DNA from: Ktedonobacterales bacterium
GTDB taxonomy: Bacteria; Chloroflexota; Ktedonobacteria; Ktedonobacterales; JADMIN01
NCBI GenBank assembly: GCA_030167145.1
Contig: CP126532.1
Coordinates: 3,540,001 to 3,572,000, forward strand
Reading direction: 5' to 3'
Length of the DNA stretch: 32,000 nt
Shown: piece by piece, positions 3,937 through 14,536 of the stretch
How positions within the stretch are numbered: position 1 is the first letter of the stretch
How the letters are laid out: every line of letters begins with the position of its first letter
Position numbers and translations under genes: made by a program
The notes under the pieces: model-generated
The model's input: only the letters and a program-made list of their open reading frames with translations
What the model was told of the DNA's origin: nothing
The model's database searches: none

Positions 3937-3975
3937 GTCATATTTCGCGGTCATATTTCGCGGTCATGTTTCGCG
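3937..3975. repeat. Tandem 13-mer GTCATATTTCGCG x3
   Basis: Copies at 3937-3949, 3950-3962 and 3963-3975. The third copy has A>G. Confidence 0.85.
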
Positions 3976-3982
3976 CGGCGGC

Positions 3983-4063
3983 GCAGTGGCCGCAGTGGCC
4001 GCAGTGGCCGCAGTGGCCGCAGTGGCCGCAGTGGCCGCAGTGGCCGCAGTGGCCGCAGTGGCC
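3983..4063. repeat. Perfect tandem 9-mer GCAGTGGCC x9 (81 bp)
   Basis: Counted base by base: nine identical units with no interruption. Each unit carries a GGCC core, so slipped hairpins (GGCC-N5-GGCC) are possible. Confidence 0.95.
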
Positions 4064-4073
4064 GATGGGTGTA

Positions 4074-4093
4074 GTTGCCGATTCTGCCGATTT
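4074..4093. repeat. Dispersed 20-mer GTTGCCGATTCTGCCGATTT, copy 1
   Basis: Identical to the copies at 4248 and 4603. Internally it is a 9-bp-phased direct repeat, TGCCGATT-n-TGCCGATT. Confidence 0.9.
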
Positions 4094-4145
4094 GCACAGT
4101 GGTATGGGGGTGTATGTCGGGAGATGACGGGAAATGGGTGGAGAA

Positions 4146-4166
4146 TTTTCGCCGTTTTCGCCGCGG
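4146..4166. repeat. TTTTCGCCG TTTTCGCCG CGG box, copy 1
   Basis: A 9-mer doublet. It recurs at 4388-4407, and a single unit occurs at 6198-6209. Confidence 0.8.
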
Positions 4167-4212
4167 TTTCGTGCTGGTTGGAGTGGCCGGAGTTGCCGAT
4201 TTTTCGACACGG

Positions 4213-4240
4213 GCAGACAGGAATGTCCGCCCCACCAGTG
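4213..4240. repeat. Hairpin motif GCAGACA-GGAA-TGTCCGC followed by CCCACCAGTG, copy 1
   Basis: 7-bp stem with one A.C mismatch. The same architecture recurs at 4506-4533. Confidence 0.6.
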
Positions 4241-4247
4241 GCAAGAA

Positions 4248-4267
4248 GTTGCCGATTCTGCCGATTT
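4248..4267. repeat. Dispersed 20-mer, copy 2
   Basis: GTTGCCGATTCTGCCGATTT, identical to copy 1. A half copy, GTTGCCGATTT, lies at 4192-4202. Confidence 0.9.
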
Positions 4268-4382
4268 TTGATGGCGCGGATGGCAAAGTAGGTGGTAGAG
4301 GGAGTTCTCGGCCTGAAGCGCCGAGGGTAATCCCGTGCGAACAGTTCGCGCAGGGGGCGAGTGGATGGATCGAGCGGGTGAG

Positions 4383-4407
4383 TTTTTTTTTCGCCGTTTT
4401 CGCCGCG
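4383..4407. repeat. T9 run followed by TTTTCGCCGTTTTCGCCGCG box, copy 2
   Basis: T9 at 4383-4391 runs into the 9-mer doublet. It is followed by GTGGCCGGA GTGGCCGGA ATGGCCGAT (4415-4441). Confidence 0.8.
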
Positions 4408-4447
4408 AATCGCGGTGGCCGGAGTGGCCGGAATGGCCGATATGCGA

Positions 4448-4467
4448 GTTGCCGATGCTGCCGATTT
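4448..4467. repeat. Dispersed 20-mer, copy 3 (1 mismatch)
   Basis: GTTGCCGATGCTGCCGATTT. Confidence 0.85.
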
Positions 4468-4505
4468 GCGCAGTTGTGTGCGAGTGGTGAGAGTAGTTTG
4501 CGCGA

Positions 4506-4533
4506 GCAGACATTCTTGTCTGCCCCACTGGTG
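4506..4533. repeat. Hairpin motif GCAGACA-TTCT-TGTCTGC followed by CCCACTGGTG, copy 2
   Basis: Perfect 7-bp stem with a 4-nt loop. It is followed by 1.5 units of the GTGGCCGCA 9-mer (4541-4553). Confidence 0.6.
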
Positions 4534-4602
4534 ACTGAAGTGGCCGCAGTGGCAGGATATGGTGTGCAAGCATGCTGGCTCTATCAGTGGCTGGAGGTGT
4601 CA

Positions 4603-4622
4603 GTTGCCGATTCTGCCGATTT
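4603..4622. repeat. Dispersed 20-mer, copy 4
   Basis: GTTGCCGATTCTGCCGATTT, identical to copies 1 and 2. Confidence 0.9.
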
Positions 4623-4676
4623 TGTAGGTTCACGCGCATTGCTCGTTGCGGTGGGAGGTGGGAACCGCATGAGAGA

Positions 4677-6179: not shown

Positions 6180-6197
6180 CCTGCGCCAGCTTTATTG

Positions 6198-6332
6198 TTT
6201 TCGCCGCGGATGGCAATTGCCGAAATGGCCCGTGTGGCGCATGCATGGGTGCGTGTTCTTCGCGGGAGGATTGGTCGCATCCAAGCAGTGTAGCATGCCA
6301 GGGCAGGTGAGGGATGTGGTCAGATGCGGTCG
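6198..6332. repeat. Compact paralogue (module B) of the 4388-4763 repeat/promoter module
   Basis: The landmarks appear in the same order as in module A: TTTTCGCCGCGG (6198), AATGGCC, GGGAGG, CGCAT, AGTGTAGCATGC (6287), AGG..GCAGGTG, ATGTGGTCA (6314), TGCGGTCG (6325). Confidence 0.5.
6287..6295 (-). promoter_or_regulatory. Orphan extended -10 element TGCTACACT, antisense to the 3' end of the membrane-protein gene
   Basis: Same 12-mer GCATGCTACACT as at 4688..4677. No minus-strand CDS lies downstream. The transcript would run into 6179 and below. Confidence 0.35.
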
Positions 6333-11672: not shown

Positions 11673-11888
11673 ATGAGCGCAGAACTGGATTTGACGGTTG
11701 AAGAGGTCGCACGGCGCCTGGGGATTGCGGAAGAGTCCGTGCGGCGCTATCTGCGCTCGGGCAAGTTGCGTGGCTATCGCGCTGGTGGAGTGAAGGCGGG
11801 CTGGCGTGTGCAAGCGCAAGACCTCGAAGCCTTCAAGGCAGCGCGTATGAACATCGCGCTGACGCAAGAAGAAAGGCCAGCGCCCTGA
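11673..11888 (+). CDS. Excisionase-family helix-turn-helix DNA-binding protein
   Basis: LTVEEVARRLGIAEESVRRYLRSGKLRGYRAGG..WRVQAQDLEAF matches the excisionase/MerR-like HTH pattern. Confidence 0.7.
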   Translation: MSAELDLTVEEVARRLGIAEESVRRYLRSGKLRGYRAGGVKAGWRVQAQDLEAFKAARMNIALTQEERPAP

Positions 11889-11968
11889 TACGACGCTGGC
11901 CAGGGGCGTGAGCACGCGAAAGAGAGTCGTCCGCGCGAGTGTAGCGCAGTGACATGAGGGGGCACGAC

Positions 11969-12859
11969 ATGAGCAACAGCGATGATCGGCGAGACGATGT
12001 GACGGCGCTGGAACTGCTCGACGAGCAGGCCGAGACCCAGGTGCGGCGAGTGTGGCATGAGGGGCGCTGGTTCTTCAGCGTGATTGATGTGGTAGGGCTG
12101 CTGACCGATGCGCCAAAGCCCCGGATGTATTGGGCTGATATGAAATGACGGATCCAAGACGAAGGGTTTGTTCAGTTGTTGGCAAAATGCCAACAACTGA
12201 ACATGAAGTCAGCCGATGGCAAACACTACCTCACCGATGCCGCCGACACGGAGACGCTGCCGCGTGCCATCCAGTCCATCCCCTCGCCGAAAGCTGAGCC
12301 ATTCAAGCAATGGCTAGCCCGCATCGGCACTGAGCGCCTCGCCGAACTTGACCAGCCAGAACTGGCGGCGGATCGCATGCGGCGCGACTACCAGCGCATG
12401 GGCTACAGTGATGAGTGGATCACCACGCGCATGAAGAGCATCATGACGCGCGACGAACTCACCGAGGAATGGCGCGAGCGTGGGGCGAAGCCCGGGCGCG
12501 AAGTCGGCATCGTGACCGAACTGCTGCACAGCGGCACATTCGGCATCACCACCAAAGATCATCAAGCGGTGAAGGGCATCAAGCCACGCGCCAGCCTGCG
12601 CGACAATATGACGCCGCTCGAACTCGCGCTGACCATCATCGGCGAAGCGACCGCCACGGAACTCCACCAGACACGCGACAGCCAGGGCATGCCTGCGCTG
12701 CAACGCGATGCGCAAGACGCTGGCGACGTGGCGGGCCGCACCCGGCGTGACATAGAGGCGCAGACCGGGCGTCCGGTGGTGAGCAGCGAGAACGCGAAGA
12801 CACTCACGGCGAAGGCCAAGCAGCCACAACTCTTCGGCGGCGATGAGGCGAGCATATGA
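11969..12859 (+). pseudogene. BRO-N / DinD-like (phage antirepressor-type) gene with one in-frame TGA at 12146-12148
   Basis: GAGGGGG lies 6 nt before ATG 11969. The translation RRVWHEGRWFFSVIDVVGLLTDAPKPRMYWADMK is followed by TGA. The same frame continues RIQDEGFVQLLAKCQQLNMKSADGKHYLTDAADTETLPRAIQSIPSPKAEPFKQWLARIGTERLAE... Track ORFs 11954..12148 and 12176..12859 are in the same frame (222 nt apart). Family members I recall read straight through this position (YW..LK.RL..EG). Confidence 0.7.
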
Positions 12860-12969: not shown

Positions 12970-14016
12970 CTAGTGACCCACCTGGCGTCGTGCATCCTCA
13001 GCGCGCATGGCCGCCAGCGAGGCGATGAGGGCCAGCGCGGCGCACAGCCCCGGCCCCACGCTCAGGATCACTGTGTACAAGCCGATGGAGAAGGGGGTCA
13101 CAAGCTCAAGCTCAAAGGGAACCGCGTACATCAGGGGCAGAGCGGAGTTCGCCGCAGCGCCCAGCGGCAGCAGGAGGCTCCCACCCCACACCAGCAGTCG
13201 CCCAGCAGGCACCCCATGTCGGCCATGCAGGTAGGCCCCACCGGCCACCACAGCCGCCACCACCAGGAAGGCGAGGATGAACAGGGAGATGCGGGGGGAC
13301 TGGCGAACGAAGTTGCCTAACCCGTCCGTCATACTCACCAAGCCAGCATAGATAACATGGTCGCCACTCCCACCATCTGCACGTAGAGGAGCGAACAGCC
13401 AGATGGCCCAGGTCAGCAGGGCGATGGCGAACGCGGCGATGCCGGAGATGACTTCGAGCCATGCGGGACGTACTGCCATCGTACCCTCCCTTCTCGCTCC
13501 CTCCCTCGATTGACGTCGTGCATCCTCAGCGCGCATGGCTGCCAGCGAGGCGATGAGGGCCAGCGCGGCGCACAGCCCCGGCCCCACGCTCAGGATCACT
13601 GTGTACAAGCCGATGGAGAAGGGATCCACACGCGCGGATATGAAAGGATTCATGTACATCACGGGCAGAGTGGCGATTGCGGAGGCGCCCAGCGGCAGCA
13701 GGAGGCTCCCACCCCACACCAGCAGTCGCCCAGCAGGCACCCCATGTCGGCCATGCAGGTAGGCCCCACCGGCCACCACAGCCGCCACCACCAGGAAGGC
13801 GAGGATGAACAGGGAGATGCGGGGGGACTGGCGAACGAAGTTGCCCAGGCCAGCCTCACTATCCACCAGGCTTATGTAGAAAAATCGAGGGCAAGAGCCG
13901 CAAATCTCACGCACTCCATAGACTGGGGCGAACAGCCAGATGGCCCAGGTCAGCAGGGCGATGGCGAACGCGGCGATGCCGGAGATGACTTCGAGCCATG
14001 CGGGACGTACTGCCAT
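12970..14016 (-). CDS. Tandemly duplicated four-TM membrane protein, two ~170-aa units fused in frame
   Basis: The 348-aa ORF starts MAVRPAWLEVISGIAAFAIALLTWAIWLFAP at both ATG 14016 and ATG 13479. Each is preceded by the same GGGAGGG RBS. The lower unit alone (12970..13479) could be translated separately. Confidence 0.65.
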   Translation of the reverse strand: MAVRPAWLEVISGIAAFAIALLTWAIWLFAPVYGVREICGSCPRFFYISLVDSEAGLGNFVRQSPRISLFILAFLVVAAVVAGGAYLHGRHGVPAGRLLVWGGSLLLPLGASAIATLPVMYMNPFISARVDPFSIGLYTVILSVGPGLCAALALIASLAAMRAEDARRQSREGARREGTMAVRPAWLEVISGIAAFAIALLTWAIWLFAPLRADGGSGDHVIYAGLVSMTDGLGNFVRQSPRISLFILAFLVVAAVVAGGAYLHGRHGVPAGRLLVWGGSLLLPLGAAANSALPLMYAVPFELELVTPFSIGLYTVILSVGPGLCAALALIASLAAMRAEDARRQVGH

Positions 14017-14028
14017 CGTACCCTCCCT
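12986..14028. repeat. Tandem duplication (offset 528/537 bp) with a mosaic identity pattern
   Basis: Block 1 is 12986-13095 = 13514-13623 (1 mismatch). Block 2 is 13157-13317 = 13685-13845 (identical by eye). Block 3 is 13391-13491 = 13928-14028 (identical). The intervening segments 13096-13156 vs 13624-13684 and 13318-13390 vs 13846-13927 are largely unalignable. Confidence 0.9.
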
Positions 14029-14117
14029 CCCATCTCACTCTCTCCTACGTCTGCTGTGGCCTACTCGTCCGCAGCGAGCAATGTGGGCCGCAGCAAGGAC
14101 GAGCTTAGCTTGATGCC

Positions 14118-14126
14118 AGTATAGCA
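14118..14126 (-). promoter_or_regulatory. Extended -10 element TGCTATACT upstream of the duplicated membrane gene
   Basis: The minus strand reads TGCTATACT, about 100 nt upstream of ATG 14016. Confidence 0.4.
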
Positions 14127-14180
14127 CCCTTAGCAGGCGGGTGCAGACATGACATTCGCCCCTCGGCATATGTGGCGGAC

Positions 14181-14216
14181 CAAAACGGACGCCCCACCTG
14201 AGAGATCAGGCGGGGC
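14181..14216 (-). terminator. Rho-independent terminator of the small ORF 14293..14493
   Basis: The minus-strand RNA reads GCCCCGCCUGA-UCUC-UCAGGUGGGGC, an 11-bp stem with one G.U pair, followed by GUCCGUUUUGG. Confidence 0.6.
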
Positions 14217-14292
14217 ATATTGCTAGCGCTTGAGACTGGCGCTGGCGACACATCTACGCTGCTGTGTGCTACTGTGTGCTACAAGGAGCGTA

Positions 14293-14493
14293 TTAGCGCC
14301 AGGCGAGGCTGGTGTACGCATAGTGGGTGAGGCGTTTGCCGCCGCGAATCAGCAGCAGGCCAAGCTGGGCGGCCAGCCAGTGGCGCAGCGCGGGAGAGCG
14401 GGGCAGGTCGGCGAGCAGCCGCTCGCGCTCGGCCTCGTGCAGCAATGACGCGGTGTGTTGGTGCATGAGTGTTTCCGCGATGTAGGGATGCAT
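14293..14493 (-). CDS. Small hypothetical protein (66 aa)
   Basis: ATG 14493 lies 7 nt after AGGAGG. The sequence is MHPYIAETLMHQHTASLLHEAERERLLADLPRSPALRHWLAAQLGLLLIRGG... A terminator lies downstream. Confidence 0.45.
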   Translation of the reverse strand: MHPYIAETLMHQHTASLLHEAERERLLADLPRSPALRHWLAAQLGLLLIRGGKRLTHYAYTSLAWR

Positions 14494-14526
14494 GGTCAAC
14501 CTCCTGATGCGGATGCCTATGAGCAT

Positions 14527-14536
14527 AGTGTACACT
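14527..14536. promoter_or_regulatory. Perfect 10-bp palindrome AGTGTACACT; candidate operator
   Basis: It lies in the 101-bp divergent region between the small ORF and the YafY/WYL regulator gene. It contains TACACT on both strands. Confidence 0.3.

Follow-up and report, generated by a model that had tools for sequence, protein, structure and literature searches.

Introduction

Tandem paralogues that retain some segments in a near-identical state, including their silent sites, because of non-reciprocal recombination, while other segments have diverged, are known as products of interlocus gene conversion, for example in the mammalian TLR1/TLR6 pair (PMC2077338) and in the HMA4 copies of Arabidopsis halleri (bioRxiv 10.1101/2025.10.29.685298). 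Here we describe a comparable mosaic within a single gene of a Ktedonobacterales bacterium (phylum Chloroflexota), which encodes a 348-aa protein and lies in a stretch of 32,000 nt (assembly GCA_030167145.1, contig CP126532.1, positions 3,540,001 to 3,572,000) that was analysed as a whole and is hereafter called the window. Bacterial concerted evolution, as of tufA and tufB, belongs to the same general class of phenomena. However, the window gene is unlike these cases in that its repeats are the halves of one reading frame, 528-537 nt apart, in that its tracts are very short (101-161 nt) and alternate precisely with the topology of the protein, and in that it comes from an uncultured organism and an undescribed protein family. 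Mosaic divergence of tandem repeats via segmental conversion is already established elsewhere.

A second parallel is offered by the Opa proteins of Neisseria, in which a conserved framework carries semivariable (SV) and hypervariable (HV1 and HV2) surface loops that are reassorted by recombination among opa loci (PMC13183285, PMC5020929); the former source speaks of the 'known recombination-mediated shuffling' of SV, HV1 and HV2. The likeness lies in membrane segments that are near-identical among copies, in two predicted exposed loops with old discrete types, and in framework recombination that shuffles these loops, which in the present family is seen between two relatives, P0018 and P0001. 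Opa proteins, on the other hand, are beta-barrels of the outer membrane, and the host-adapted pathogen encodes them at 3-11 scattered, phase-variable loci. The window protein is a predicted alpha-helical cytoplasmic-membrane protein composed of fused tandem units; it has no phase-variation repeat, and no sign of immune or phage selection was found.

In its architecture, the repeated unit recalls the claudin/PMP22/TARP (stargazin) proteins: both have four transmembrane (TM) segments, cytoplasmic N and C termini (predicted for the window protein), and an extracellular loop 1 with beta-strands and a Cys pair, although the second unit of the window protein is without this pair. The known claudin family is eukaryotic, however, and at thresholds as loose as E<=1 sequence profiles linked the window family to nothing in Pfam, the claudin families included. 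A more general precedent is the fusion of small, homodimeric membrane proteins into two-domain proteins with pseudo-symmetry. In keeping with it, single-unit and fused two- or three-unit members coexist in the family described here, and the even number of helices allows parallel fusion via a short cytoplasmic linker. The window protein differs in that its linker is a translated ribosome-binding site and its halves are partly identical in DNA; single units may dimerize.

Results

Anatomy of a mosaic tandem gene

The open reading frame (ORF) has an intact frame and encodes two head-to-tail units of ~170 aa with four TM segments each, here called unit N and unit C. A codon-aware alignment of the two units was used to set the limits of three constant blocks (const1 to const3) and of the two variable segments that lie between them. 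The following features include the Shine-Dalgarno (SD) sequences and the 5' untranslated region (5'UTR); positions are those of the window, and assignments to either side of the membrane are predictions.

Whole ORF: 12970..14016, minus strand; NCBI WIG60667.1, OJF49_003415, 'hypothetical protein' of a Ktedonobacterales metagenome-assembled genome (MAG); two fused four-TM units.
Unit N: 13480..14016, minus strand; 179 aa including the 10-aa linker; loop 1 of the 2-Cys type (CGSC).
Unit C: 12970..13479, minus strand; 169 aa plus stop; loop 1 of the 0-Cys type; its own intact ATG with an SD before it.
Gene 5'UTR: 14017..14045, minus strand; SD GGGAGGG; left edge of the repeated unit.
Const1, copy N: 13928..14028, minus strand; 12 nt of 5'UTR (SD AGGGAGGGTACG), N terminus and TM1; 101 nt, 0 differences from 13391-13491.
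Const1, copy C: 13391..13491, minus strand; 101 nt, the first 12 of which fall inside the linker.
Variable segment 1 (loop 1), copy N: 13846..13929, minus strand; codons 30-57, 84 nt; TM1-TM2 extracytoplasmic loop, with a predicted beta-hairpin and a Cys pair.
Variable segment 1 (loop 1), copy C: 13318..13392, minus strand; 75 nt, 9 nt shorter than copy N; without Cys.
Const2, copy N: 13685..13845, minus strand; end of loop 1, TM2, cytoplasmic loop GAYLHGRHGVPAGR and TM3; 161 nt, 0 differences from 13157-13317.
Const2, copy C: 13157..13317, minus strand; 161 nt, same as copy N.
Variable segment 2 (loop 3), copy N: 13624..13686, minus strand; codons 111-131, 63 nt; TM3-TM4 extracytoplasmic loop.
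Variable segment 2 (loop 3), copy C: 13096..13158, minus strand; 63 nt.
Const3, copy N: 13510..13623, minus strand; TM4, then the cytoplasmic tail as far as RRQ; 114 nt, differing from 12982-13095 at 3 synonymous positions, each within the last 11 codons.
Const3, copy C: 12982..13095, minus strand; 114 nt.
Linker SREGARREGT: 13480..13509, minus strand; former 5'UTR (SD region) that is now translated; homologue of 14017-14045, from which it departs, beyond the identical 12 nt, by 2 mismatches and a 4-nt indel.

A preliminary description of this DNA had recognized the three near-identical blocks and a tandem duplication of a four-TM unit that took in the ribosome-binding site. Both points agree with our alignment: const1 and const2 are free of differences, const3, when trimmed as in that description, spans 108 nt with 1 mismatch, and the identity of const1 takes in the 12 nt upstream of each ATG, a Shine-Dalgarno stretch. 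The loop peptides quoted there were also correct. Its view that the variable segments are largely unalignable, on the other hand, needs to be revised. In alignments of N with C, 50/88 columns of the loop 1 segments (~57%) and 41/64 columns of the loop 3 segments (~65%) are identical, and against codon shuffles their homology is still detectable in nucleotides (z=5.5 for loop 3 and z=3.2 for loop 1). Rather than being unrelated inserts, the variable segments are thus the same loops in diverged form.

A pattern of divergence that calls for recombination

By the Nei-Gojobori method, the constant blocks (119 codons) have a synonymous divergence (dS) of 0.02 and a nonsynonymous divergence (dN) of 0. 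In the variable segments (49 codons) the proportion of differing synonymous sites (pS) is 0.63 (dS ~1.4, saturated) and dN is 0.57, giving a dN/dS of ~0.4. Even where the amino acid is unchanged, 12 of 19 loop codons differ synonymously. Uniform divergence after duplication, which the preliminary description had already dismissed, cannot give such a contrast; for the 161-nt difference-free run alone, the probability, given the ~15% overall difference, is ~0.85^161, or roughly 4e-12. As the silent sites and the 12 nt of former 5'UTR with the SD are identical between the copies, selection on the protein cannot explain the pattern and recombination is needed; identity that reaches into the SD-derived linker sequence is a signature of DNA-level copying rather than of protein constraint. 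Fast protein evolution after a recent duplication is likewise ruled out, since the silent sites of the loops are saturated while 370 nt of constant sequence carry one change.

The blocks also differ in their ancestry. Loop 1 of unit N (VYGVREICGSCPRFFYISLVDSEAG) matches loop 1 of proteins from other organisms, namely P0004 (z=7.5), P0006 (z=6.1) and the first unit of P0001 (P0001-N; z=5.9), whereas its match to loop 1 of unit C gives z=1.4. This is so even though units N and C are identical in the constant blocks, yet as whole units are only ~40-52% identical to these homologues. A loop that is closer to foreign loops than to that of its own twin implies discordant ancestry between blocks, a statement that is confined to loop 1.

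Exchange between the units of a relative

Recombination of the kind required can be seen directly in P0018 (L090 241-2031; 3 units, 596 aa) and P0001 (L001 2207-3385; 2 units, 392 aa), which are alleles from a pair of samples in a single JGI study. The two loci share 95-98% identity and differ by 612 nt: P0001 equals nt 1-894 of P0018 joined to nt 1507-1791. The crossover lies inside a 37-nt stretch that is identical between units 2 and 3, encodes VAVGAYLHGGRR and is the counterpart of const2 in the window gene, and the recombinant unit in P0001 combines loop 1 of unit 2 with loop 3 of unit 3. A further trace is found within P0018, where pS between units 2 and 3 is 0.12 in the TM2-loop 2-TM3 block and 0.47-0.73 elsewhere, while units 1 and 3 show no such dip in the central block. 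Thus, local homogenization and unequal crossing-over in the conserved core occur in this family; they were seen in P0018 and P0001 rather than in the window genome itself. The window gene is the extreme case of this core homogenization. In known cases of interlocus gene conversion, too, unequal crossing-over alters copy number, as it does between P0018 and P0001.

We also note that unit 3 of P0018 looks mosaic on a finer scale, with the start of TM2 resembling unit 1 and the end of TM2 resembling unit 2.

A very rare family of single and fused units

An exhaustive hidden Markov model search recovered only 14 clusters among 1.84 billion representatives, pointing to a very rare family. A word-indexed protein search with the window ORF returned only P0001, and one with a 17-unit profile returned only four proteins, one of them new. 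Protein-pattern scans for the family were without result in GTDB genomes, in IMG/VR and in JGI metagenome contigs; ten aligned units had diverged too far to yield a pattern. A degenerate DNA pattern for GAYLHG...GRxLxWGG, which matches the window twice, found nothing in metagenome contigs. The 348-aa protein itself has no real match in Pfam, NCBIfam, PHROGs, PADLOC or the PDB sequences; the same locus is also on record as JGI 3300045419 (contig Ga0494333_323, ~3,552,970-3,554,016). A database oddity is that the 90% cluster of this protein is represented by an unrelated 47-aa ENA peptide (P0017), which may explain why the window ORF never surfaces in homology outputs.

Most members of the family are single units of 135-166 aa. 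Besides P0018 with its three units, multiple units are found in P0001 and P0002 (370 aa), with two each, and P0007 (293 aa) has ~1.6 units with a period of 330 nt. The linkers of these fused members contain decayed relics of an SD and a start codon, TGGGACGGCACG followed by GTT in P0002 and GGCAGGGCAGGAACG followed by CTC in P0007, whereas in the linker DNA of the window gene, GGGAGGGTACG followed by ATG, both are intact. The fusions therefore arise by tandem duplication of a segment that extends from the 5'UTR to just before the stop codon, and, to judge from the differing junction positions, this probably happened more than once. The halves of P0001 and P0002 are ~42-46% identical throughout, a state comparable to that of the loops of the window gene. 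Pairwise identities do not show whether, among the fused homologues, N units are orthologous to N units and C units to C units. The loops are the most variable part of the protein across the family.

The family has no fixed genomic setting. At 80 loci around DeoC in other genomes (best matches in Ktedonobacteria), DeoC being a neighbour of the window gene, no homologue was present, so the window gene stands outside any conserved neighbourhood. The flanking genes of the homologues have nothing in common with the window and their contexts are mutually unrelated; often these are accessory, as in the case of P0018, which lies near a PIN gene. The single-unit P0005 (L087 2100-4256, and L086) is found in a run of unannotated small genes that is ended by a tyrosine integrase gene directly abutting nuoH, which suggests a small integrated element. 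P0010 is situated near a DDE_3 transposase and a DUF4145 gene.

Predicted topology and fold

Over 17 units of the family, the density of Lys plus Arg (K+R) is 0.15 at the N terminus, 0.24 in loop 2 and 0.22 at the C terminus, as against 0.07 in loop 1 and 0.04 in loop 3. Loop 1 has two Cys in 11 of these units, none in the other 6, and never one. The charge bias and the 0-or-2 pattern of Cys together support a topology in which both termini are inside while loops 1 and 3 are outside, with a disulfide wherever loop 1 has two Cys; both variable loops would hence be extracytoplasmic, in line with the earlier placement of the two on the same, probably outer, face.

An AlphaFold (AF2) model of the unit from the 17-unit alignment (predicted local distance difference test score, pLDDT, 88; predicted template modelling score, pTM, 0.79) has four long helices, a loop 1 beta-hairpin at residues 33-48 and a disordered loop 3; a full-length model based on only three aligned sequences reached no more than pLDDT 51 and was set aside. 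The best PDB matches of the unit model in Foldseek were TARP gamma-8/gamma-2 and claudin-19, with template modelling scores of 0.5-0.56, E values no better than 3.9e-3 and a root-mean-square deviation of ~6 A; a BFVD fold search gave no match. The modelled likeness to claudins and TARPs is weak and is one of architecture only, not demonstrated homology.

Origin of the mosaic

We favor, with a probability of roughly 60%, a tandem fusion of some age, in which segmental gene conversion between the halves has recently overwritten the three membrane/cytoplasmic blocks. The tandem duplication took in the sequence between about -29 in the 5'UTR and codon 169, without the stop codon, and thereby turned the old ribosome-binding region into an in-frame 10-aa linker, predicted to be cytoplasmic. 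The copies would have to be old enough for their loops to reach saturated divergence. Non-reciprocal homologous recombination between the repeats, i.e., segmental intragenic gene conversion, would then recently have overwritten the SD with the N terminus and TM1, the block from TM2 through the cytoplasmic loop to TM3, and TM4 with the tail. What ends the tracts at the loops may be the divergence there, which would block heteroduplex extension, or else selection against loop-homogenized products. The product would be an eight-TM pseudo-heterodimer with identical membrane cores and two different outward-facing sets of loops, and the loops, being the most variable part family-wide, may constitute its interaction surface. 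The internal SD and ATG, kept intact by conversion, may allow unit C to be made alone. That the second copy is real is supported by the position of the gene in the interior of a 5,069,607-bp contig, by unique junction sequences and by the intact frame. Of the three mechanisms that had been offered for this gene, cassette exchange, conversion limited to the constant blocks and targeted diversification, conversion fits best, and a relative recombines in the homologous block.

Several considerations weigh against this explanation. No close relative of the window gene exists in any collection searched, which leaves the age of the duplication and the direction of conversion unreadable from phylogeny. 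Junction positions vary among the multi-unit homologues, and P0007 has a period of 330 nt, so duplications recur independently in the family and that in the window gene could also be recent. Three separate conversion tracts, all very recent, are required. Further, the loops 3 of units N and C are mutual best matches (z~5) and thus not incongruent; for loop 1 of unit C no significant relative was found at all (best z 2.4). The GC content at third codon positions (GC3) is 0.44-0.54 in loop 1 and 0.67-0.71 in loop 3, compared with 0.81-0.87 in the constant blocks and ~0.84 in neighboring genes; the low value in both versions of loop 1 is not explained by conversion and could hint at imported DNA. 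Some loops of P0001 are also low in GC3, those of P0002 and P0005 are not, and the low loop values could stem from an origin in foreign DNA, from weaker selection on codon usage or from a GC bias in the conversion of the blocks.

Such import is the core of the main rival explanation, possible though in our judgment less likely than not, in which a recent tandem duplication, or the tandem insertion of a second allele, was followed by replacement of loops 1 and 3 of one copy through recombination with a divergent allele or paralogue sharing the constant blocks. The donor could be DNA of another strain, from a population in which the loops are held polymorphic, and the imported part would be the variable patches. 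A recent duplication would sit well with the independent recurrence of duplications in the family, with their different junctions and periods, and with the perfectly intact internal SD and ATG, unlike those of P0002 and P0007. The atypical GC3 of the loops (0.44-0.71 vs ~0.84) is in its favor, as is the 0-Cys loop 1 of unit C, a type found otherwise only in single-unit homologues such as P0005 and P0013 and without an orthologue in the C units of other fused proteins. A single import across loop 1, const2 and loop 3 would even suffice, if const2 of the donor were identical. However, no donor was found: a search that covered the 32-kb window revealed no third copy, silent cassette or donor cassette, so a store of donor cassettes is not supported, and protein searches brought up no paralogue from the same genome, with origins looked up only for P0001, P0002, P0004, P0005, P0007-P0010 and P0018. 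Import would also merely shift the problem of the mosaic to the donor allele. The unit edges, moreover, are more diverged than the interior (the 3 synonymous differences in the last 11 codons, and the 2 mismatches and 4-nt indel between -29 and -13). An older duplication with interior conversion predicts this, whereas a recent duplication with two imported patches would have left the edges identical.

The alternation of constant and variable segments (const-var-const-var-const) resembles the strain bubbles of an assembly graph and the source is a MAG, so that two strain alleles of a single-unit gene might have been stitched in tandem by the assembler. We consider this very improbable given that the locus is interior to its long contig, that the reading frame is preserved, that the N-to-C junction is unique, joining a 3' coding end to a diverged 5'UTR and copying neither flank, and that the same architecture, several units fused through SD-relic linkers, recurs in independent homologues from other samples. 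It is scarcely credible that targeted hypermutation, by a diversity-generating retroelement or the like, or strong positive selection alone diversified the loops of a recent duplicate. The restriction of the changes to two exposed loops would suit such a process, but the 32-kb window encodes neither a reverse transcriptase nor a recombinase. All twelve kinds of mismatch occur, adenines are not preferred, and there is the 9-nt indel besides. Point mutation could not have saturated the synonymous sites of the loops (dN/dS ~0.4) in the time over which 370 nt took up a single change, and loop 1 of unit N is an old family-type sequence common to other organisms. On the same grounds of substitution types, indel and lack of a reverse transcriptase in the window, the targeted diversification entertained in the preliminary description has to be set aside and the gene was rejected as the target of a diversity-generating retroelement. 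An invertible or shufflon-type cassette switch was rejected as well: the window has no recombinase and no further copies of the segments, and only weak inverted repeats of 12-16 nt were found. All viable readings involve homologous recombination acting on a conserved scaffold.

Genomic context

The window is ordinary chromosome, with genes for PLD-like, WYL regulator, DeoC, aldehyde dehydrogenase, M29 peptidase, IspF, PHO4 and extracytoplasmic function (ECF) sigma proteins, among others; the best relatives of the DeoC neighbor are in Ktedonobacteraceae and Thermogemmatispora. No tRNA, integrase, reverse transcriptase, recombinase or phage structural gene was found in the 32 kb. A prophage context was rejected in view of these housekeeping genes and of the absence of phage structural and integrase genes from the window. 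A prophage superinfection exclusion or receptor-masking protein likewise finds no support, as there is no PHROG family above noise, no IMG/VR relative and no BFVD fold match, though the distant homologue P0005 adjoins a tyrosine integrase. Nor does the 348-aa protein match any known anti-phage defense system in PADLOC. The earlier proposals of a receptor decoy or of a superinfection exclusion, immunity or sensing protein have, with no PHROG or PADLOC match, no relative on viral contigs and no prophage, no support either way.

The gene had further been described as lying beside excisionase-like and BRO-N-type genes. The former holds, in that the 71-aa neighbor (11673-11888) is an HTH_17/excisionase-family protein, but the latter finds no support in Pfam: the region 11954-12859 (plus strand) has no Pfam match and is a homologue of the PADLOC candidate PDC-S13 / phrog_15286. 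This homologue is split by a single in-frame TGA at 12146-12148 (YWADMK-stop-RIQDEG) into ORFs of 64 aa (11954-12148) and 227 aa (12176-12859) in the same frame, and is either a pseudogene, a read-through site or a sequencing error.

On the other side of the duplicated gene, ~170 nt upstream of it, a terminator-like hairpin (14189-14218, minus strand; 13 pairs, T-rich tail) lies 3' of an 80-aa ORF (14293-14535). The duplicated gene would therefore have its own promoter in 14029-14188; a promoter scan for this gene detected no sigma-70-like promoter.

Elsewhere in the window, the gap between a luciferase-like gene (minus strand) and a called 189-aa ORF (plus strand) contains a perfect tandem array of CGCAGTGGC with 9.2 copies (3982-4064) and a 13-mer in 3 copies (3937-3975). 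An element of ~40 nt (AGTTGCCGATTCTGCCGATTT...) occurs four times, at 4073, 4247, 4447 and 4602, with related motifs at 6197-6303. To judge from these repeats, the 189-aa 'gene' (region 4073-4641) may be a repeat region rather than a gene.

Discussion

The window gene provides a clean bacterial example in which converted and unconverted stretches coincide exactly with membrane topology in one reading frame. It indicates that exposed loops can retain histories of their own on a scaffold that recombination keeps uniform, and it points to a very rare claudin-like four-helix family in which the number of units (1, ~1.6, 2, 3) and the combinations of loops change by homologous recombination. If the loops are not determinants of specificity, the case still serves as a caution that near-identical internal repeats need not mean recent duplication.

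If, on the other hand, the loops are specificity determinants, the arrangement would amount to a simple, self-contained route to surface variation, and to our knowledge no such route is known in the phylum. The three identical blocks recur at a distance of 528 nt, and RecA-dependent exchange between them should, by analogy with P0018 and P0001, give one- and three-unit derivatives and new loop combinations. A bolder proposal, which we put forward as a speculation with low odds of being right, is that the family as a whole is a recombination-driven variable surface-recognition system of filamentous Chloroflexota. The tandem units would then serve as their own cassette store, the constant blocks would be kept as crossover sites, and RecA-dependent unequal exchange would reassort loop 1/loop 3 pairs and unit number (1, 2, 3) at high frequency. 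Were this true, a population would harbor cells with different outward specificities, of use for example in phage evasion, kin recognition or cell-cell contact, and the family would be an alpha-helical counterpart of Opa-type variation in monoderm cells, with a claudin-like scaffold as its basis.

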